Shown here piece by piece: positions 14,824-48,192 of a stretch of DNA of 64,000 nucleotides. The first letter of the stretch is position 1, and each line of letters opens with the position of its first letter. Location: assembly GCA_041665145.1 (NCBI GenBank), contig JBAYJK010000003.1:5177-69176 (forward strand), read 5' to 3'. This stretch comes from Patescibacteria group bacterium. Lineage in GTDB: Bacteria > Patescibacteriota > Microgenomatia > UBA1406. The notes beneath the pieces were generated by a model. The model searched no databases. It had not been told where the DNA came from and worked only from the letters and a program-made list of their open reading frames with translations. The translations under genes were made by a program, and so were the position numbers.

Positions 14824-16653
14824 ATGAATGTTTCGAGTATTCGTAATTTTGCCATTATCGCCCATGTTGATCACGGTAAGTCTACTTTGGCTGACCGGCT
14901 TTTGGAATTAACGCATGTCGTTACCCCCGGTAAGCACGATGAACAACTCTTGGATAGAAACCCTATATCACGTGAACGAGGAATAACCATCAAACTGGCA
15001 CCGGTGACGATGAAATACAGAGCACAGTCTAAAAGCCCGCCTGCCGGCGAGGCAGGTCTCAATGTCTCAATGTCCGAAAGTCGACATTTAGACACTCAGA
15101 CATTCAGACCTTCAGATGAGTTTACTCTGAATCTTGTTGATACCCCCGGCCATGTCGATTTTTCGTATGAAGTCGAACGAACCCTGGCGTGTGTAGAGGG
15201 CGTCATTTTACTCGTTGACGCGACCCAGGGGATTCAGGCGCAAACGATTGCACATGCGTACAAAGCACTTGAACAGAACCTGACGATTATTCCCGTTGTG
15301 AACAAAATAGATATGGAAAATGCACAGGTGGATAAAACTATTGCGGAGCTTGTCGAATTCCTGGGAGTGAAACCCGAAGAAGTGTACAAAATCTCGGCCA
15401 AAACCGGCATCGGTGTACAAGAACTTCTTGATGCAGTTATCGAACAAGTACCCCCGCCGTCGGACAGCGAATACCGAAAATCGAACATAGAAACGTTGGA
15501 TCACACCAAGTGTCTGATCTTTGATTCGTACTATGATCCGCACCGCGGAGTTATTGCCTTTGCCCGGGTTTTTAACGGTGAAGTGAAAAAGAATACCAAG
15601 CTGTGGTTACAAGCTACCCAAAAATCTTTTGATGTTATGGAAGTCGGTATTTTTACGCCGGATCTTACGCCTACCGAAACATTGGAAGACGGACAAATCG
15701 GGTACATTGTGACAAACCTGAAAGATATCCATGACGTGCAGGTGGGAGATACTCTCAGCACTATTCAGCGTGATACCATGCTTTCCGGATATCGGAAAGT
15801 AAAACCGATGGTCTACGGTTCCGTGTTTCCGACGGACCCCGACGAATATATCGACTTAAAAAAATCTTTGGAAAAGTTGTATTTAAATGACGCTGCGCTG
15901 ACCTTTGAACCCATTTTCAGCAAGGCGATGGGCGGAGGTTTTCGTATCGGTTTTCTGGGACTACTGCACGCCGACGTTACGCGTGAACGACTTGAACGGG
16001 AATTCGAGCAGAGCTTGGTGCTTACGCCTCCGAAAGTGGAATATGAAAATCATGACGGAACATTTTACGAGCCGTTTGTTTCCGTAACCGTTGTCACTCC
16101 CCAACCCTACATGGGCGGTGTGATGCAGCTTTGCGAAGAATCACGGGCCAGCTATAAACATATGGATAATAAGAACCAGATTATCTTGGTTTATGAAATG
16201 CCTTTGGTGGAACTTATCGGACAGTTCTTCGACCGCTTGAAAAGTATTACGTCGGGGTACGCTTCTCTTGACTGGGAGTTTTTGGAATACCGACCGGTAC
16301 AGGCAGATTACTTGGAAATTCTTTTAAACCTTGAACCGGTGGAAGAGTTTTCCGAGATTGTGGTGCATGAGCGTGCATTCGAACGTGCCCGCGAACTTAC
16401 GAAGAAAATACATGAAATTATTCCCCGACAACAGTACGAAGTGAAAATTCAGGCGCGGTATAAAGGAAAGATTATCGCATCAGAGCGTGTTGCTCCATTT
16501 AGAAAAGATGTTACGGCCAAGCTCTACGGAGGAGACCGCACACGGAAAGACAAGTTGTTGAACAAACAGAAAAAAGGTAAAAAACTCATGAAGAATATCG
16601 GCAAGGTGGAGATTCCAAAAGAAGCATTCATCAAGCTCTTCAAGACGTCCTAA
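14824..16653 (+). CDS. lepA: Elongation factor 4 (LepA) carrying a ~27-aa repeat-derived insertion in the G domain
   Basis: 609 aa. NFAIIAHVDHGKSTL, DTPGHVDF, NKID and the conserved LepA C-terminal domain are present. The segment QSKSPPAGEAGLNVSMSESRHLDTQTFRPSDE has no counterpart in canonical LepA. Confidence 0.95.
   Translation: MNVSSIRNFAIIAHVDHGKSTLADRLLELTHVVTPGKHDEQLLDRNPISRERGITIKLAPVTMKYRAQSKSPPAGEAGLNVSMSESRHLDTQTFRPSDEFTLNLVDTPGHVDFSYEVERTLACVEGVILLVDATQGIQAQTIAHAYKALEQNLTIIPVVNKIDMENAQVDKTIAELVEFLGVKPEEVYKISAKTGIGVQELLDAVIEQVPPPSDSEYRKSNIETLDHTKCLIFDSYYDPHRGVIAFARVFNGEVKKNTKLWLQATQKSFDVMEVGIFTPDLTPTETLEDGQIGYIVTNLKDIHDVQVGDTLSTIQRDTMLSGYRKVKPMVYGSVFPTDPDEYIDLKKSLEKLYLNDAALTFEPIFSKAMGGGFRIGFLGLLHADVTRERLEREFEQSLVLTPPKVEYENHDGTFYEPFVSVTVVTPQPYMGGVMQLCEESRASYKHMDNKNQIILVYEMPLVELIGQFFDRLKSITSGYASLDWEFLEYRPVQADYLEILLNLEPVEEFSEIVVHERAFERARELTKKIHEIIPRQQYEVKIQARYKGKIIASERVAPFRKDVTAKLYGGDRTRKDKLLNKQKKGKKLMKNIGKVEIPKEAFIKLFKTS
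15056..15117. repeat. R4: palindromic GTCT/AGAC element inserted in-frame inside lepA
   Basis: The units are gtctcaat gtctcaat gtccgaaa GTCGAC atttagac actcagac attcagac cttcagat. This is the same architecture and GTCGAC centre as intergenic R2. Confidence 0.85.
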
Positions 16654-24430: not shown

Positions 24431-24497
24431 GACCCAGTTTCCGAATTGTCACCGTATGGTGTGCGTTCGAAGCAATCGCTTCGATAGGAACTGGGTC
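24431..24497. terminator. Nested stem-loop between convergent genes (possible bidirectional terminator or small structured RNA)
   Basis: The outer stem is gacccagtttcc/ggaactgggtc (11 bp, one bulged T). The inner perfect 7-bp hairpin is tcgaagc-aatc-gcttcga (24467..24484). Confidence 0.35.
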
Positions 24498-24500
24498 GAA

Positions 24501-25127
24501 CTATTTAAACACCCAGATATCTTTTTCTTTTGATTTGATAATTTTTCTGTAGATATTCCAATCTTCGGTCATCTTGTCAAAGTATCTGCGAATTGTGCCA
24601 GCTATCATGTCTGCCATTTGTACGAGCACATCTTTAGATGAGTCCCGAAACCTGATGTTCTTCATAACTGTATTGTTGGTGGAGTTCAAATGTTGGCGAA
24701 GATAGGTACTCAGTTGTGTCCGAAACGCCCGCTCACCTCTTCCATCAATGCGAATTTTAGCGTTTCTGATCGTATTATTGTTGTGTTGTAGTATCTGTCG
24801 TAGTGAGAAATTGTAGAAACTTTCTTTGCTTGTTTGTAAATAGGTACTGTAAATCTGTGGTTTGTTAATAACAATAGCTCGAATTTCATATTTGATGTCG
24901 CTAATTGCGTGAAGAAATGCTTCCCGATATGATCTACTACATCCATTAAATTTGAACTCAAATCTGTCTGATTTCTGCAATTTTTGTTTTAAGCGTTTAA
25001 TTCTGATTGCGGCTTCTTCAGCATCTAAATCATTCTTAAAGACTACCAAAGCTATAACAAAATATGGGCTTGATCCCCGTGCAATCTTAAATCCAGGATC
25101 GCCAGATTCATCTATGAAAATAATCAT
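24501..25127 (-). CDS. DUF3800-like protein
   Basis: The N-terminus MIIFIDESGDPGF is typical of DUF3800. The start is set at ATG 25127, 6 nt downstream of TACAAT (reverse complement of 25134..25139). The track's 25178 start would overlap the divergent MazG promoter. Confidence 0.65.
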   Translation of the reverse strand: MIIFIDESGDPGFKIARGSSPYFVIALVVFKNDLDAEEAAIRIKRLKQKLQKSDRFEFKFNGCSRSYREAFLHAISDIKYEIRAIVINKPQIYSTYLQTSKESFYNFSLRQILQHNNNTIRNAKIRIDGRGERAFRTQLSTYLRQHLNSTNNTVMKNIRFRDSSKDVLVQMADMIAGTIRRYFDKMTEDWNIYRKIIKSKEKDIWVFK

Positions 25128-42535: not shown

Positions 42536-43165
42536 ATGTCAGACCTTACTACCATTTATATTGTCAGACACGGCGAGTCGGTGTGGAATGTCATGAAGAT
42601 TCTCCAGGGGCAACGCAATTCTCCGTTAACCCGTCGGGGTAAAGAACAAGCAGTTCATCGAGCTTTAGAGTTGAAAGATATCGAGTTTTCTGCCATCTTT
42701 TCTTCCGACCTCGTGCGCGCGGAGCAAACGGCTCATGTTTTGGCGCTGAAACGGAAAATGGCCATTCAGACAACCAAAGCACTCAGGGAGCGCTATTTTG
42801 CAAAATTCGAAGGACGGCGTCCGGGAGTGGACAAAGAATTACGAAAGTTGTTCAAAGATTATGAGGCGGCATCTCCTACGGATAAATGGATAATGAATCG
42901 TGACGGTATTGAAAGTGATGAAGAAGTGGTAAGTCGGGTAATTACCCTGCTCCGTGAGGTTGCCGTCGCCTACGCGGGTAAAAACGTGCTGATGGTGAGT
43001 CATGGCGGCATGATGCATGTGCTGTTGGTGCATTTGGGATATGGTACCCACGAAGAGCTTCATCCGTGGTCCATAAGCAATCTCGCGTACATTACATTGG
43101 AATCAGACGGCGTTGAATTTACTATCAAAGAAGTACATGGAATAGTCAAAGACAGTACGGTATAA
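42536..43165 (+). CDS. Histidine phosphatase family protein (phosphoglycerate mutase-like)
   Basis: 209 aa. It has the IYIVRHGESVWN catalytic RHG motif and a downstream SHGG. Confidence 0.85.
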   Translation: MSDLTTIYIVRHGESVWNVMKILQGQRNSPLTRRGKEQAVHRALELKDIEFSAIFSSDLVRAEQTAHVLALKRKMAIQTTKALRERYFAKFEGRRPGVDKELRKLFKDYEAASPTDKWIMNRDGIESDEEVVSRVITLLREVAVAYAGKNVLMVSHGGMMHVLLVHLGYGTHEELHPWSISNLAYITLESDGVEFTIKEVHGIVKDSTV

Positions 43166-43178
43166 TGGAAAAGAAGTC

Positions 43179-43415
43179 GCCGCCTTAGCTTAAGCGGTAC
43201 CTGCCCGCAATGCTTCGCATAGCGATGCAGGCGGGGAGCAATCGATTTGAGCCGTTTTGCCGAAGTAGCTCAGGGGTAGAGCAATCGCTTTGTAAGCGAT
43301 GGGTCGTGGGTCCAAATCCCACCTTCGGCTCAAATTAATATGCGATGGGTCGTCGGTTCCCTGCTCGCCATCGCTTCGCTCAGGCGTTAGCGGGCGAGAA
43401 ATCCGACAGGCGGCT
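43179..43415 (+). pseudogene. Split or interrupted tRNA-like gene whose halves bracket tRNA-Thr (status uncertain: pseudogene, att scar or intron-containing tRNA)
   Basis: The 5' half is GCCGCCT-TA-GCTT-AAGCGGTA-[36-nt hairpin 43200..43235]-GAGC-A-ATCGA. The 3' half is GCGAT-GGGTC-GTCGG-TTC-[39-nt hairpin 43360..43398]-AAAT-CCGAC-AGGCGGC-T. The acceptor and T stems are mutually complementary, and the whole is paralogous to the nested tRNA-Thr. Confidence 0.35.
43259..43330 (+). tRNA. tRNA-Thr (anticodon UGU)
   Basis: Hand-folded cloverleaf: GCCGAAG-TA-GCTC-AGGGGTA-GAGC-A-ATCGC-TTTGTAA-GCGAT-GGGTC-GTGGG-TCCAAAT-CCCAC-CTTCGGC-T. The T-loop has C at position 55. CCA is not encoded. Confidence 0.8.
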
Positions 43416-43576
43416 CACTATTCTCGTCGGTTCCCCGATTTGTGTAGCTCATCAATTGTTGGTTGATCAAATTCCATACAGTGCTTCATGCAAAATGGGT
43501 TTCTAAATTCTTAGATTTTTATAATGATACTCTAGGATGTGTTCTGCTATAATCAAAGTATTATGTGGAGTTGTAA

Positions 43577-45604
43577 ATGAAATTACTTAAACTAAGAGTA
43601 AAGAATTACAAGTCAATTATTGACAGCGGCGAATGCAGTCTTGAAAAAGGAGTGACCATTTTTGCCGGCAAGAACGAAGCGGGGAAAACGGCACTGTTAG
43701 AGGCATTGGAAGATTTTAATCTAAATTCAAAAATAAAGATAGCAGCGGTTCCATTATTCAGGAAAAATAAACAGCCTCAGATTACATTAACATTTGCTGC
43801 TAGTGCATCTGAGCTGAACAATGCTCTGAGAGATTTTGGTCTCCCTCAATTTACAACAGAAACAGAAATAATACTAACAAAAATATATCCTGGCAATACA
43901 TATGTCGTGCCTGATGAGACATTTATTAAATTAGGCATAAAAAATACAACTCTTACAGCCGAAGATGAAAAAGTCCTGAATGAGAAGTATAAACTTATAA
44001 AAGCTGAACTCGAACCGTTTTATCCAGCTATACATCAGCTTTTGCCTGAATTGAATCTTGAAAATCCGGAAATTACTAAAGCTAATTTTCAACAATTTAT
44101 TAGTGCGCCAAAAATTGAGATAACTGATGAAGACTCAAAGTTAACTATTAATTCAATGTCTCAGGACTTTGTTGATGTTCTAAGTATTCCAACTTCAGAC
44201 AGGATACGTGAGAAAATTACTGACGCTTTTACAAGAATAATCCCAACTTTCATACTTTTTAATTCCTTTGAAGACGTGTTTCCATCGACTATAACAATTG
44301 AAGAGGCTGCTAATAGTCCGCTGATGAAAGATCTGGATTTAATTAGTAACCTGAATCTTGATATTCTAAAAAACGGCAATCCTTCGGAGAAGATGGAACA
44401 CAAATTGACACTTAATCAAAGAATGCGAGAGGAGTATCAAAAATATTGGACCCAAGATGTAACTAATCTTCAAGTTGATTATGACAGTGGTAAACTCAAT
44501 TTTTTCATAGTAGAAGATGGTAAATACTACCCTCCCGTTGTTAGGAGCAAGGGTAAACAATGGCATTTGGCTTTCTATATTCGTGTTTCAGCTCGTTCAG
44601 CCGAGGATGTTACGAATATTATTCTTATTGATGAGCCCGGTCTGTTTTTACACGCTACTGCGCAGAAAGATATTCTACGAAAGCTTGAAGACTCTGCTAA
44701 AAGATCTCAAGTAATTTTTACTACTCACTCACCCTACCTTATTGAACAAGACAATTTTATTAGAATACGATTAGTCCAGCGAGGTGTTATTCCGAAGATA
44801 ATCGAACAGAGTTCTCTGGAAGGGAAATTTAATGACAACAAAAATACTTACACAAAGTTAATTGAATTCTACGAAGTGAAGAATCATAAAGATGGCGGGA
44901 ATTATTTTAAGCTTAGAGACAAAGAGTTAAATGAAGACGAAGAAAATGCGATAAGGAACATATTAATTCAGCTTGAATACAACATTGGGACCACTATCGA
45001 AGACAAACTCCATAAGGTTTCGGATAAGGAGACACTAACACCAATATTAACGGCTATTGGACTTGAGCTTACTGATGGAATTAATAGCACCGAAAAAGTT
45101 AGAAACGTTGTATGCGAAGGACTATCTGACGTATTTTATCTTCAAGCGTTTAAGAGACTAATAAACAATGCAGATAACAATTTTATATTTGGGGGAGGCT
45201 CTGGCAATATGCCAATTGTTGGCACTATTTTGTCGGGGTGGGGTTGTAAGATTCTATATCTTTACGATAATGACAAGGGTAAAAAGGATGGAGAAAAAAA
45301 CCTTAAGAAAAATTGGTTAATTACAACAGGGCAAATTCTTTCTGTGGTTGAGAAGATTGGAGGAAGTGTTGAGGATGTCTTTGAACAGGTTGACTTTAAG
45401 AAATTTGTTCTTGAAGATGAAAAAACCTTAATCAAGAAAACTAACTCTGAATACATGAAAGTCGAAGGAAAAGACAAAGTTATGCATGCTAAAAATTTTT
45501 ATCGTTTATGTGAAGCAAACAAGGTTGTTATGTCAGCTACTACTATGAAGAGAATTAAAGTTATTTTTGATGAATTTAGTAAGAGATTTAAGGAAGAATT
45601 CTAG
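43577..45604 (+). CDS. OLD-family / PARIS-like ABC-ATPase-Toprim nuclease
   Basis: 675 aa. The start is MKLLKLRVKNYKSI. It has Walker A GKNEAGKT, signature-like RSKGKQW, Walker B IILIDEPGLFLH, H-loop TTHSP, and a C-terminal Toprim-like VVCEGLSD...LYLYDNDKG. GGAG lies 8 nt upstream of the ATG, and TATAAT at 43549..43554. Confidence 0.75.
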   Translation: MKLLKLRVKNYKSIIDSGECSLEKGVTIFAGKNEAGKTALLEALEDFNLNSKIKIAAVPLFRKNKQPQITLTFAASASELNNALRDFGLPQFTTETEIILTKIYPGNTYVVPDETFIKLGIKNTTLTAEDEKVLNEKYKLIKAELEPFYPAIHQLLPELNLENPEITKANFQQFISAPKIEITDEDSKLTINSMSQDFVDVLSIPTSDRIREKITDAFTRIIPTFILFNSFEDVFPSTITIEEAANSPLMKDLDLISNLNLDILKNGNPSEKMEHKLTLNQRMREEYQKYWTQDVTNLQVDYDSGKLNFFIVEDGKYYPPVVRSKGKQWHLAFYIRVSARSAEDVTNIILIDEPGLFLHATAQKDILRKLEDSAKRSQVIFTTHSPYLIEQDNFIRIRLVQRGVIPKIIEQSSLEGKFNDNKNTYTKLIEFYEVKNHKDGGNYFKLRDKELNEDEENAIRNILIQLEYNIGTTIEDKLHKVSDKETLTPILTAIGLELTDGINSTEKVRNVVCEGLSDVFYLQAFKRLINNADNNFIFGGGSGNMPIVGTILSGWGCKILYLYDNDKGKKDGEKNLKKNWLITTGQILSVVEKIGGSVEDVFEQVDFKKFVLEDEKTLIKKTNSEYMKVEGKDKVMHAKNFYRLCEANKVVMSATTMKRIKVIFDEFSKRFKEEF

Positions 45605-45737
45605 GCTGTTAAATTGTATCGCACAAGCATTTTTTGTAGCGTGTTCTCGATAAGTGCTCTGAGCCTTTGTAACTTATTTTCGTAAGCTCTATAGCTGAAA
45701 GTTATAACTAAATATCTTATTAGTTATGGTATTTAGG

Positions 45738-46274
45738 TTATTTCGAATATACCGTTTCGCGTGTTATCGGTTCGGGTCGCAATCCGCCGATGCGCTTAAA
45801 CGGAAATTTCTTTCCTTGAGGTTCAAGAGGTCCCATTTCACTACCCTCAATCCAGTATGCACTGGTTTCATCAGGATGTGCGGCTGGTTGCGTTCCGTAG
45901 CAAATTGCGGAGTTTGGTTGGACATATCTGATCTTACTCGGAGGTTCTGGCAAAATACCATCTGCAGGGCGATGATAGGTAAAAGTAACGAGCATTTTTC
46001 CCTTCATCTTGCCTATACCGTATGAGATTCCAAAAGCTTCGATTAAACACATCGGAATACGTTGGGTCGAGTCATTCTCGTCAAGATAAGCCAGCCACAA
46101 CATGTCTACGAAATCACCCTGCGTTAAGTATGGGGCACGAACGATTCTGAGCGGGATAATGTTTTGCAACAACGTGCCATCGGTCAAACGGAGTGTTTCT
46201 CTCGGCAACTGAACACCCTCTTTCTGCCCGCGCATGTGTTGGACAACCTGACCATATTCTGCAGCCATGGGCAA
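45738..46274 (-). CDS. Hypothetical protein
   Basis: 178 aa. It lies 10 nt downstream of the 635-aa surface protein gene on the same strand. No motif was recognised. Confidence 0.45.
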   Translation of the reverse strand: MPMAAEYGQVVQHMRGQKEGVQLPRETLRLTDGTLLQNIIPLRIVRAPYLTQGDFVDMLWLAYLDENDSTQRIPMCLIEAFGISYGIGKMKGKMLVTFTYHRPADGILPEPPSKIRYVQPNSAICYGTQPAAHPDETSAYWIEGSEMGPLEPQGKKFPFKRIGGLRPEPITRETVYSK

Positions 46275-46284
46275 TTATACCATA

Positions 46285-48192
46285 TTACAGCCTTGCTGCA
46301 GGCTTTTTCAGGAATACCAGCAACCCACCGACTGCTCCGAGCATCAGAACAATAAAGAATGCAAAAAGCGGAAGCAGCGCATTCTGTTGGTTTGCCGCAC
46401 TCACCGATTCCTGTGACGGCATACCCGTTGGGCTGACCGGTGTTTGAGACACGGTACGGGCGAAACTCTGTTTGAGTGCTGTCACCAATTCCGTTTTCGG
46501 TTTATAGGCAGCGGTCAAGACTTGCTCATTGGTGGTTGTGTACATGTTCCGTTTTGTCTCTGCAAAGTACGCCTTGTTCACCCGTGCAAATTCCTGAGGA
46601 GAGAGCGTTACTTTGTTTTCAGGATTAGCAGGATCCGTAAAGCGGAGTACGAACGGAAATGTGGGGATTCTCTTGCCGTTGAAGACAAAGAAACCGTCCG
46701 CATCTGCATTAGTGAATGCATAAGAGGCATTCGCAAGCTTGGGAATAACTATTTCAACAATTGCCCGGGGTATAACTGCGCCGCTTTCACTGACTGCGAA
46801 ACCGGTAACGGATGTCGGCATAAGTGCGACCTCGGTAGCGACAACCGCCTGTTTGGGTGGTATTGTAGCGGTACTGATGAGTGACAGTTTCTCTACTTCC
46901 AGTCCGATGTTACCGTCAAAGCCGTCAGGGAGTACCGATTCGGGAATCGTCAGGATGTATTGTCGGTCTGCGTCTGTCTGCATTTGGGTCTTAACGACTC
47001 CATTGATCAGCGCACGCACTATTGTTTTGGGATGTGAAACCATACCTTTGATGATGTAGTTCGTTTTGTCGTGCATGACATTTTTGGTTTCAATCAGCGC
47101 GTTCGAACCGGTATAATTCGCGTTTTTGGGCATTACCACAACGTCGCGTCTTTCAGGCATCCCGGCTTTTTCAACAATCTCCTCGTCAATCGATGAATAC
47201 AAACGGGTAGTGTCAATATAAATACCGTTCGGGTCGATCACTTTCAACGAACGCACGACCTCTTCCAATGTTGCTGCATCGGTCGGAAACGTAAAATCAT
47301 CTGACTTTGGAGTCAGATAATATGTTCCTGCAGGAATCGCAAAATTAAATGTTCCGTCAGCAACCGTCTTATACGGATTCAGGAACATCGGATTTTGCGG
47401 GTTTACGGTCTGAACCTTGTTGTTTCCTTGCTTGTTGAAAAGAGTTATCTCCATATTCTGAACCGGTTCAAGTGTCTTTGCGTCAATGACGCGTCCGTAC
47501 GGGTCCCATTGCACCGAAACGCAGTTTGTTGCCGCGTCGGGCAGCTGTTGTTGTGGGGTAAATGTCGCCAATTTTAGTGCCAACCCGACAGCGTCAGTTT
47601 GTGCCGTGCCGGAAAGGTTGGTAAGAATCTGCATTCCGAAAAAATTCTGATCCAAAAATTGTGATGTCCAACTCATGACATGCGGAACCGTGAGTGTACC
47701 GTCACCCGCCGGCATGATGGCTGTTTTTGACTGATCCAAAACCTTAAAGTCCATTCCGTAGCCCTGACTTGCAAAGGTCGGAACCGTTGCATCAGGACAT
47801 GTTGATACACCATCTTTATCAACTGCACAGGTAAATTCTCCCTGGTGTTCCCGTAAAATGCTTACCGATTTTGTCGGTTCGAATTTGTATACCTGAGTTC
47901 CGCTGACTTTGTTTTTAAGCATCGCGACATGGGCATAGATGTTGTTATCGGCCGAATTTCTCCATAAATGAAAATAATGTAATAACCCCTCGTCGTTAAA
48001 AAATTCCTCCTGATCATGTGTAAGAAGTAATCCGGCATATTGTGTCATTCGGCTGTCGTGCGGATCGGGTACTACATACGCGTCAAGACAGCTCACTAAG
48101 ACATTTTGGGCAGTGTCAGCAGCATAGATGCGGGAAACCGGTCCGAGCAGAAATGTAATAACGAGAAGAAAGATCACCAGTAATTTCTTCAT
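46285..48192 (-). CDS. Secreted/surface protein with carboxypeptidase-regulatory-like Ig-fold repeats and a C-terminal membrane anchor
   Basis: 635 aa. The signal peptide is MKKLLVIFLLVITFLLGPVSRIYA. Segments like GFAVSESGAVIPRAIVEIV...TNADADGFFVF resemble CarboxypepD_reg. The C-terminus is hydrophobic with a KKPAARL tail. Confidence 0.55.
   Translation of the reverse strand: MKKLLVIFLLVITFLLGPVSRIYAADTAQNVLVSCLDAYVVPDPHDSRMTQYAGLLLTHDQEEFFNDEGLLHYFHLWRNSADNNIYAHVAMLKNKVSGTQVYKFEPTKSVSILREHQGEFTCAVDKDGVSTCPDATVPTFASQGYGMDFKVLDQSKTAIMPAGDGTLTVPHVMSWTSQFLDQNFFGMQILTNLSGTAQTDAVGLALKLATFTPQQQLPDAATNCVSVQWDPYGRVIDAKTLEPVQNMEITLFNKQGNNKVQTVNPQNPMFLNPYKTVADGTFNFAIPAGTYYLTPKSDDFTFPTDAATLEEVVRSLKVIDPNGIYIDTTRLYSSIDEEIVEKAGMPERRDVVVMPKNANYTGSNALIETKNVMHDKTNYIIKGMVSHPKTIVRALINGVVKTQMQTDADRQYILTIPESVLPDGFDGNIGLEVEKLSLISTATIPPKQAVVATEVALMPTSVTGFAVSESGAVIPRAIVEIVIPKLANASYAFTNADADGFFVFNGKRIPTFPFVLRFTDPANPENKVTLSPQEFARVNKAYFAETKRNMYTTTNEQVLTAAYKPKTELVTALKQSFARTVSQTPVSPTGMPSQESVSAANQQNALLPLFAFFIVLMLGAVGGLLVFLKKPAARL

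Follow-up and report, generated by a model that had tools for sequence, protein, structure and literature searches.

A tRNA-Thr gene of a Patescibacteria bacterium interrupted by a second tRNA-Thr gene and by two GC-rich mini-palindromes

Rickettsia palindromic elements (RPEs) are selfish palindromic DNA found in frame in protein genes and also in RNA genes, and are tolerated in surface loops. Reportedly described by Ogata et al. in 2000, they are said to measure about 100–150 bp and to be restricted to Rickettsia. In fungal mitochondria, mobile GC clusters and double-hairpin elements, i.e. GC-rich hairpins of 30–50 nt spreading within AT-richer genomes, occupy intergenic spacers and the variable loops of RNA genes. 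Repetitive extragenic palindromic (REP) elements form another described class (PMC3733652; bioRxiv 10.1101/2021.07.10.451892). The tRNA genes are integration hotspots with displaced tRNA fragments, as in Islander-type islands (PMC4383910, PMC9897764); archaeal tRNA genes can contain multiple introns or be split or permuted (PMC3978253, PMC3241643), and group I introns occur at position 35/36 of tRNAs of Patescibacteria (PMC13011429). Here we describe a locus that has likenesses to each of these systems. It lies in a 64-kb stretch (“the window”; 64,000 nucleotides of contig JBAYJK010000003.1) of a bacterium of the candidate phyla radiation (CPR) near Microgenomates, whose His_Phos and LepA homologs are named Daviesbacteria, Roizmanbacteria and Patescibacteria. 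One tRNA-Thr(UGU) gene (the “outer gene”) is interrupted there in its D-, anticodon and T-loops, the anticodon-loop insert holding a second, complete tRNA-Thr(UGU) (the “inner tRNA”). On the genome side, our counts of hairpin units and of tRNA-Thr genes cover this window.

We think that the locus is probably a dead ancestral tRNA-Thr(UGU) gene, split by a working tRNA-Thr in its anticodon loop and by mini-palindromes in its D- and T-loops. The site would be a hotspot for insertion at a tRNA and hold a pseudogene that selfish mini-palindromes have colonised. The inner tRNA would be the working gene: transcription would start at the old upstream promoter and run through the outer 5' half, and RNase P and 3' processing would free the tRNA, so that the outer halves would merely be its leader and trailer. 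The hairpin units would be selfish mobile DNA landing preferentially in single-stranded loops of stem-loop DNA. Similar insertions into live tRNA genes would be purged, and the copies in the outer gene may have persisted because this gene was already dispensable. The OLD/AriA-like gene located downstream would be a separate acquisition at the same tRNA hotspot.

The features listed in an earlier note on this DNA are all present (Table 1). The outer gene is found as a 5' half (43179–43251) and a 3' half (43342–43415), with hairpins at 43200–43235 (D-loop) and 43360–43398 (T-loop). A 12-nt direct repeat, TCGTCGGTTCCC, occurs at 43350–43361 and 43424–43435 (100% identical), and a 17-nt hairpin, ATCAATTGTTGGTTGAT, at 43451–43467. 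The DNA upstream of the inner tRNA reads GCCGCCTTAGCTTAAGCGGTA, 36 nt, then GAGCAATCGATTTGAG, and that downstream GCGATGGGTCGTCGGTTC, 39 nt, then AAATCCGACAGGCGGCT. The interruptions fall at tRNA positions 21/22 (D-loop), 35/36 (anticodon loop, 89 bp) and 56/57 (T-loop). When the three inserts are removed (TTTG joined to TAT at positions 35/36, i.e. 43236–43249 joined to 43339 onwards), ARAGORN recognises a tRNA-Thr(UGU). The spacing between the His_Phos stop codon and the start of the outer tRNA is the same as in relatives.

This reconstituted gene is nevertheless altered when compared with an intact ortholog. With ATCGA as the 5' strand of its anticodon stem it has an A31.G39 mismatch; it also carries T38 and changes in the D-loop and D-stem. 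The loops had been described as canonical once the inserts are removed, which does not hold for the D-loop: the outer gene has TAAGCGGTA where the resident type has CAGTGGTA, and in the remnant 43179–43199 the loop is GCTTAAGCGGTA versus GCTCAGTGGTA in relatives. A working tRNA would probably not tolerate these changes well. The outer and inner genes do differ by compensatory changes, as claimed, because they represent two distinct functional tRNA-Thr lineages; these differences do not show that the split gene is under selection. A perfect 10-nt inverted repeat, ATTTGAGCCG/CGGCTCAAAT, covers the left junction (43245–43254) and the 3' end of the inner tRNA (43326–43335), and thus brackets the inner tRNA. 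Its left arm is made of the 9-nt filler 43250–43258 and the preceding ATTTG. Because of this repeat the end of the outer 5' half is ambiguous (G30 or G35), and in a transcript its arms would compete with the inner acceptor stem.

The synteny of the ABC-transporter and His_Phos genes is kept in three relatives (L006, L007, and L008 with L009). In L006, whose His_Phos is 75% identical to that of the window, one uninterrupted tRNA-Thr(UGU), GCCGCCTTAGCTCAGTGGTAGAGCAATCGCTTTGTAAGCGATGGGTCGTCGGTTCAAATCCGACAGGCGGCTCA, lies directly 3' of the phosphatase gene. L007 (His_Phos 69% identical) has the same uninterrupted tRNA-Thr(UGU) after His_Phos, up to the end of the contig. Three pieces of the outer gene are 100% identical to the intact L006 tRNA (over 12, 18 and 19 nt) and the fourth matches it at 13 of 14 positions. 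Since the uninterrupted tRNA of L006 and L007 matches the outer pieces, we take the outer gene to be the ancestral resident tRNA-Thr(UGU) gene. The retrievable copies of the exact window arrangement all come from one species and have an identical sequence. Genome contigs scanned with the His_Phos protein, and with a 32-mer of the inner tRNA, gave no match; the lineage is without a close GTDB representative. Around the His_Phos homologs that are about 52% identical (L014–L016), as around a 35% homolog of the downstream gene (L019), synteny is lost and no tRNA is present.

The uninterrupted orthologs bear directly on another explanation, already offered in the earlier note: that of a genuine multiply interrupted tRNA-Thr, whose D-, anticodon- and T-loop inserts need processing. 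An archaeal-like pathway, or one new to bacteria, would remove them from the RNA, and a second functional tRNA would result. The window does resemble archaeal multi-intron tRNA genes, in that D-, anticodon- and T-loop are interrupted in a single gene and the exons rebuild the cloverleaf recognised by ARAGORN, the T-loop insertion being base-exact. It differs from them by its bacterial host, its uninterrupted orthologs, its degenerate exons (the A31.G39 mismatch and altered D-loop) and by inserts that belong to a DNA repeat family found outside tRNAs. No bulge-helix-bulge (BHB; two 3-nt bulges with 4 bp between) was seen at the boundaries of the hairpin inserts when the folds were inspected by eye, no dedicated BHB search being made. 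The hairpin helices begin at the junctions: that of the D unit spans the first to the last insert base, and the exon bases at the junctions (GGTA/GAGC and TTC/AAAT) cannot form the central helix of a BHB. The same units also lie in intergenic phage DNA and are translated in lepA, so that they are not excised from RNA there, and the outer gene is made superfluous by an intact tRNA that has the same anticodon. This reading of the earlier note is not supported, and we regard it as very improbable.

Group I introns require a catalytic core of more than 200 nt and a U before the 5' splice site. The known introns of this type in Patescibacteria and the present insert share the phylum and the same nominal anticodon-loop position; the latter is nevertheless only 89 nt long, is itself a tRNA gene and follows G35 instead of a U. 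A cmscan search over 43000–46400 (E ≤ 10) gave no Intron_gpI match, only tRNA. The archaeal-type and group I intron readings were both rejected, as they fail their defining tests (no BHB, uninterrupted orthologs, no covariance match).

As noted earlier, the inner tRNA-Thr(UGU) occupies 43259–43330/1; it is recognised by ARAGORN and by Rfam (RF00005, 69.6 bits). Its acceptor, D-arm and T-arm are of the type of tRNA-Thr(CGU) genes found elsewhere. The tRNA-Thr(CGU) genes of L011 and L012, two unrelated metagenome contigs, are identical to it in the T-arm and the acceptor 3' strand and near-identical in the 5' part (1 mismatch each). In the anticodon arm it does not differ from the resident gene. 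We also observed that its T-loop (43308–43314) reads TCCAAAT, with C where U55 is usual. The inner tRNA is likely the working copy.

The bracketing of this tRNA by structured DNA could also be read as co-option: pairing among the outer acceptor strands and the two hairpin units would enclose the inner tRNA in a structured leader and trailer of its precursor, modulating processing, stability or recognition by a tRNA-targeting nuclease, or would yield a tRNA-like decoy RNA. Indeed, in the minimum-free-energy fold of 43170–43475 (−120.5 kcal/mol, z −3.3) the two outer acceptor strands are paired with each other, as are the D and T units, with the inner tRNA enclosed; the perfect inverted repeat competes with the inner acceptor stem, and a defence-type ATPase of the PARIS/OLD kind adjoins the locus. 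But such a z-score is mostly expected from three tRNA-derived helices and two palindromes. In addition the copies, identical and from one species, bring no comparative support, and L008 has the nested tRNA with another junction and without a hairpin unit in the short stretch recovered. Co-option therefore appears quite improbable, and the regulatory or decoy RNA suggested in the earlier note is unsupported.

The nesting of a tRNA-Thr in the resident gene is not restricted to the window. In L008/L009 (His_Phos 56% identical) the arrangement is GCCGCCTTAGCTCAAGTG-TGAACAAT, the inner tRNA (100% identical), then AATTAATC-GAGCAATCCCG: here it is the D-loop of the resident gene that holds the inner-tRNA cassette, whose trailer is homologous to that of the window. 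Within the short stretch recovered from L008 there is no hairpin unit and the junction is different from that of the window. In L013, an unrelated CPR-like contig, a 5' tRNA-Thr fragment extending to G35 is followed by a full tRNA-Thr(UGU) and this by three 3' fragments that start at U36, a layout comparable to that of the window. One of these three 3' halves has the inner-type T-arm, and two are preceded by homologous spacers. In the same region (60–460) the D-loop of the 5' fragment is interrupted by about 68 nt at the same position as in the window. The full tRNA-Thr(UGU) of L013 is flanked by an imperfect inverted repeat, GCCCGTTAATT / AATTATTACGGGC, and a tRNA-Tyr lies on the opposite strand. 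A viral scan with the inner tRNA gave no match, and one with the L013 spacer motif gave a single chance match within a coding region. The nested pattern favours a recurrent process at tRNA-Thr(UGU). The inner segment could have entered by site-specific integration followed by deletion, by illegitimate recombination of paralogous tRNA genes, or by the same loop-targeting process as the hairpins.

The array of L013 looks like classical serial integration at the anticodon loop. In another explanation, serial integrations into tRNA-Thr by tyrosine integrases left each of the three interruptions as a scar: elements targeting the anticodon loop and the T-loop would have come and gone, leaving displaced tRNA halves and hairpins resembling attachment-site cores, with the OLD-like gene as the last island remnant. 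The outer 3' half begins at U36, as do the three displaced 3' halves of L013, and the core of the D insert resembles a tRNA anticodon arm (18/22; none of 500 shuffles reaches this score). The island is compositionally foreign, and a T-arm-like direct repeat marks its left edge. This AT-rich segment of about 2.3 kb is absent in L006, in which an ortholog of window 46285–48192 follows within about 30 nt of the tRNA (E = 9e-25). Its gene at 43577–45604 encodes an OLD/AriA/GajA-like ABC ATPase (Pfam AAA_15/AAA_21; PADLOC AriA, Old, PtuA and GajA). The segment thus shares with integrase-mediated islands that it is foreign DNA beside a tRNA, compositionally distinct and absent from a relative.

An AT-rich foreign defence gene right after a tRNA and absent in a relative, tRNA fragments, and the L013 array of 3' halves starting in the anticodon loop are all reminiscent of Islander-type islands. 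However, Pfam scans of the two genes of the island and of 10 selected open reading frames (ORFs; 34.5–57 kb) revealed no integrase or recombinase, and neither a tRNA-derived fragment nor a direct repeat was found at its distal end (~45.6–46.3 kb). In the classical type the host 5' half is kept in the regenerated tRNA; here there is no hybrid of host 5' and island 3' parts, and a complete foreign gene stands with the two displaced host halves on either side. The window also differs from L013 in this respect, with no cargo between the displaced halves. Unlike attachment-site scars, the hairpin units occur in phage intergenic regions, within each other and in lepA. The AT-rich segment was acquired next to a tRNA but cannot be recognised as an integrase island. 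Integrase scars alone would account for this island and for L013 but not for the hairpin family, and we consider this reading unlikely. Of the readings in the earlier note, the nearest to ours is that of a tRNA destroyed by insertions at a hotspot, with an OLD-like gene adjacent; the uninterrupted relatives and the absence of the segment in L006 agree with this, but the hairpins are not integration scars, and neither an integrase nor a distal tRNA fragment was found in the scans above.

The D and T inserts fold at −19.0 kcal/mol (z −3.2) and −18.8 kcal/mol (z −2.8) respectively. Their likeness, claimed for their starts, extends to full length: 28 of 37 positions align, a score that none of 1000 shuffles reaches, and the two units are direct repeats of each other. 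They share the termini CCTGCCCGC...GCAGGCGGG with a family of GC-rich hairpins of 30–39 nt. Scanning IMG/VR with the 5' sequence common to both inserts led to contigs with whole units; further copies of the hairpin lie in many IMG/VR contigs as well as in lepA. The exact D insert (36/36) is present in a tailed-phage contig (L043), between a scaffold-like and a capsid-like gene. In one set of related IMG/VR contigs a variant, CCTGCCCGCAATGCTTCGCAACGCGAGGCAGGCGGG, is present on both strands, with up to 3 copies in a contig, and more variants are found in L025, L063, L069, L074, L080, L083, L136 and L139. A scan with the termini only (CCTGCCCGC-N12-26-GCAGGCGGG) gave at least 120 IMG/VR loci versus 30 for a control with reversed termini (at least 4-fold), with unit lengths peaking at 30, 33 and 36 nt. 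The D and T inserts are thus members of a dispersed mini-palindrome family, and not introns.

Some units are nested in the loops of other units (L026, 327–395; L062, minus strand, ~1477–1518). For the nesting in L062, empty homologous sites are available: the corresponding unit is uninterrupted in L150 (2353–2385) and L066 (3511–3540), where it lies between a terminator-like hairpin and the ribosome-binding site of the next gene. Insertion is exact, with no target duplication, in the nested units and in the tRNA D- and T-loops. At other sites, direct repeats of 8–16 nt are enriched around the units (22% vs 4.7% in the null, score ≥ 7).

Among INPHARED phages, blastn found nothing matching the 36-nt unit, and Rfam at E ≤ 10 (43000–46400) returned no family but tRNA. 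The sole match of contig L022, weak and 209 nt long, was to a Methanosarcina virus, too little to assign a host. A literature search on the terminal 9-mers gave nothing relevant except a Neisseria REP, ATTCCCGCGCAGGCGGGAATC. Just upstream of the units in L083 (4272–4323, and a further one on the minus strand) and L069 we observed a small hairpin, (C/G)GCTAAAGC(G/C), like the altered D-loop of the window, GCTTAAGCGG; the viral copies of L083 and L069 are directly followed by GGGACTAC. The mobile unit may be longer than 36 nt in some lineages.

Two Logan contigs from independent runs (L002 and L003) end inside the D unit, at window positions 43227 and 43226 respectively. Another contig from the L002 sample (L005) starts inside the same unit at 43209, 19 nt earlier, and overlaps L002 in the reference arrangement. 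De Bruijn assemblers break contigs at short repeats that occur elsewhere in the sample, and these breaks are consistent with a 36-nt unit repeated elsewhere in those metagenomes. An inversion switch of the D versus T units was rejected: they are arranged as direct repeats, and the overlap of L002 with L005 follows the reference order. Two other candidates were discarded: TIGR arrays (those of tandem interspaced guide RNAs) also have 36-nt units, but these stand in tandem with 9-nt spacers and UG/CCA boxes whereas the hairpin units are solitary; and no arrays were seen that would fit a CRISPR repeat, single or not.

The third member in the window lies in lepA (14824–16653, plus strand). The insert region (15031–15114) is in frame, in the G domain of LepA/EF4. 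The insert is a palindromic stretch of about 80 nt made of a long imperfect hairpin and a mini unit with CCTGCC...GCAGGCGGG termini; it has a strong double-hairpin fold (z −5.4). Solved LepA structures, and many LepA homologs from Microgenomates, lack the 27–28 or so residues encoded by this insert. Among 120 Microgenomates homologs (P0124–P0243) the loop between GITIK and DTPGH varies from 26 to 62 residues, i.e. 0 to about 36 extra residues, which are unrelated even between close relatives. Some of these inserts read as translated GC-rich palindromes: IPAEAGIQ (PAEAGI), LPAGRQ (PAGRQ) and SPPAGEAGL. The LepA loop, compared here at the protein level, may be a group-wide hotspot for in-frame palindromic insertion. 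Since the hairpin unit is translated in frame in lepA, a selfish insertion at the DNA level is indicated rather than an intron excised from RNA.

How do these units compare with the palindromes already described? Like REP/REPIN elements, which are mobilised by REP-associated tyrosine transposases (RAYTs), they are GC-rich imperfect palindromes of 20–40 nt with conserved ends, on both strands, often intergenic, in clusters and nested copies. The units of 30–39 nt with fixed termini, in many contigs and up to 3 per contig on both strands, resemble REP elements in these respects, and some copies are followed by ...CTAC. In contrast, the conserved GTAG/CGTC tag is not general in the hairpin family, its members are found mainly in viral contigs of widely differing GC, and the three copies of the window are all intragenic, none intergenic. 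No RAYT was identified in the 64-kb window, no genome-wide RAYT search being made.

The lepA insert behaves like an RPE: palindromic DNA stands in frame in a protein gene, is also found in tRNA loops, and the LepA loop is variable among relatives. The units are nevertheless shorter than RPEs (21–39 nt), have another sequence, are shared with phage contigs and destroy the host tRNA. Some copies of the fungal mitochondrial GC clusters have short flanking duplications, which recalls the direct repeats enriched around the hairpin family; those clusters are organellar and unrelated in sequence, and the likeness is one of form.

A further proposal, which we make only tentatively and hold to be rather doubtful, is that the CCTGCCCGC...GCAGGCGGG units represent undescribed ultra-small mobile hairpins (21–39 nt) common to CPR bacteria and diverse phages. 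They would insert precisely, without target duplication, into single-stranded loops (tRNA D- and T-loops, their own copies), and protein loops such as that of LepA would accept them in frame. In several CPR lineages, a whole tRNA-Thr cassette may have reached the loops of resident tRNA-Thr genes by this same structure-targeted route (the anticodon loop in the window and L013, the D-loop in L008).

Several points weigh against the reading of a dead tRNA gene colonised by mini-palindromes. By His_Phos identity L008, which has the nested state, is the outgroup to the window, L006 and L007; therefore either the nested state arose twice, or it was transferred, or the gene tree misleads. That the inner gene is functional and the outer one dead is what we infer from their sequences. 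About one quarter of the at least 120 matches to the termini pattern, mostly in GC-rich contigs, are expected by chance. The covariance model R1, built from the hairpin unit, gives 60.7 bits to copy 1, one of its own training sequences, and the T-loop copy matches it weakly (13.7 bits, E = 1.2). A covariation test of two alternative folds of the unit had too sparse a signal and supported no specific fold. The similarity of the D-loop insert of L013 to the hairpin unit is not significant (p = 0.25). Finally, we infer the mobility of the units from their distribution, from nested copies and from one empty versus filled site, no transposase having been identified.

These results remove the reading of a bacterial tRNA with three archaeal-style introns and show how such patterns can originate, which is of use in annotating the numerous unusual tRNA loci of CPR genomes. 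What makes the locus interesting is its hairpin family: very small GC-rich palindromes common to a CPR chromosome and many viral contigs. If truly mobile and structure-targeted, its units would be among the smallest mobile DNAs known and a source of variation in protein loops and RNA genes of streamlined genomes. Besides, a replacement tRNA-Thr nested in the resident tRNA-Thr gene in three lineages suggests a recurrent, still unexplained route of tRNA gene replacement.

Table 1. Coordinates of the features of the tRNA-Thr locus and of related elements in the window.
Feature	Position	Strand	Evidence
Outer remnant, positions 1–21 (acceptor 5' strand, D-stem 5' strand, D-loop)	43179..43199	+	First 12 nt 100% identical to L006/L007 tRNA
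Mini-hairpin unit copy 1, 36 nt, D-loop 21/22, CCTGCCCGCAATGCTTCGCATAGCGATGCAGGCGGG	43200..43235	+	Fold; phage-contig copy
Outer remnant: D-stem 3' strand, anticodon-stem 5' strand ATCGA (one change), loop to G35 (TTTG)	43236..43249	+	13/14 identical to L006 positions 21–34
9-nt leader/filler AGCCGTTTT between outer 5' half and inner tRNA	43250..43258	+	Without counterpart in L008
Inner intact tRNA-Thr(UGU)	43259..43331	+	ARAGORN; Rfam RF00005
Inner tRNA trailer AAATTAA, homologous to L008 trailer AATTAAT	43332..43338	+	Alignment
Outer remnant, positions 36–56: U36 (TAT), anticodon-stem 3' strand, variable loop, T-stem 5' strand, T-loop TTC	43339..43359	+	43342–43359 100% identical to L006
Mini-hairpin unit copy 2, 39 nt, diverged, T-loop 56/57, CCTGCTCGCCATCGCTTCGCTCAGGCGTTAGCGGGCGAG	43360..43398	+	Fold; alignment to copy 1
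Outer remnant, positions 57–73: T-loop AAAT, T-stem 3' strand, acceptor 3' strand, discriminator	43399..43415	+	43399–43417 100% identical to L006
Tail of tRNA-like debris: TCGTCGGTTCCC copy 2 (43424–43435, T-arm-like), GTAGCTCA, anticodon-arm-like hairpin 43451–43467	43416..43480	+	
AT-rich segment, ~35% GC vs ~47% in flanks	43420..45730	+	Composition
Third hairpin-family member CCTGCCTCGCCGGCAGGCGGG	15036..15056	-	R1 match, E = 0.26

The tail 43416–43480 forms the left edge of the AT-rich segment, and its fold is no better than that of shuffled sequences (z −1.1). Between the ATPase gene and the conserved 635-aa gene, an ORF on the minus strand (45738–46274, 176/178 aa) matches nothing in Pfam or PADLOC; although of native-like GC content, it is absent from L006. 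Further upstream, 24431–24501 (plus strand) matches the Rfam DUF3800-IX RNA (RF02968) with 63 bits, above the gathering threshold, and this match has an 11-nt word (24471–24481) in common with the anticodon-arm region of tRNA-Thr.

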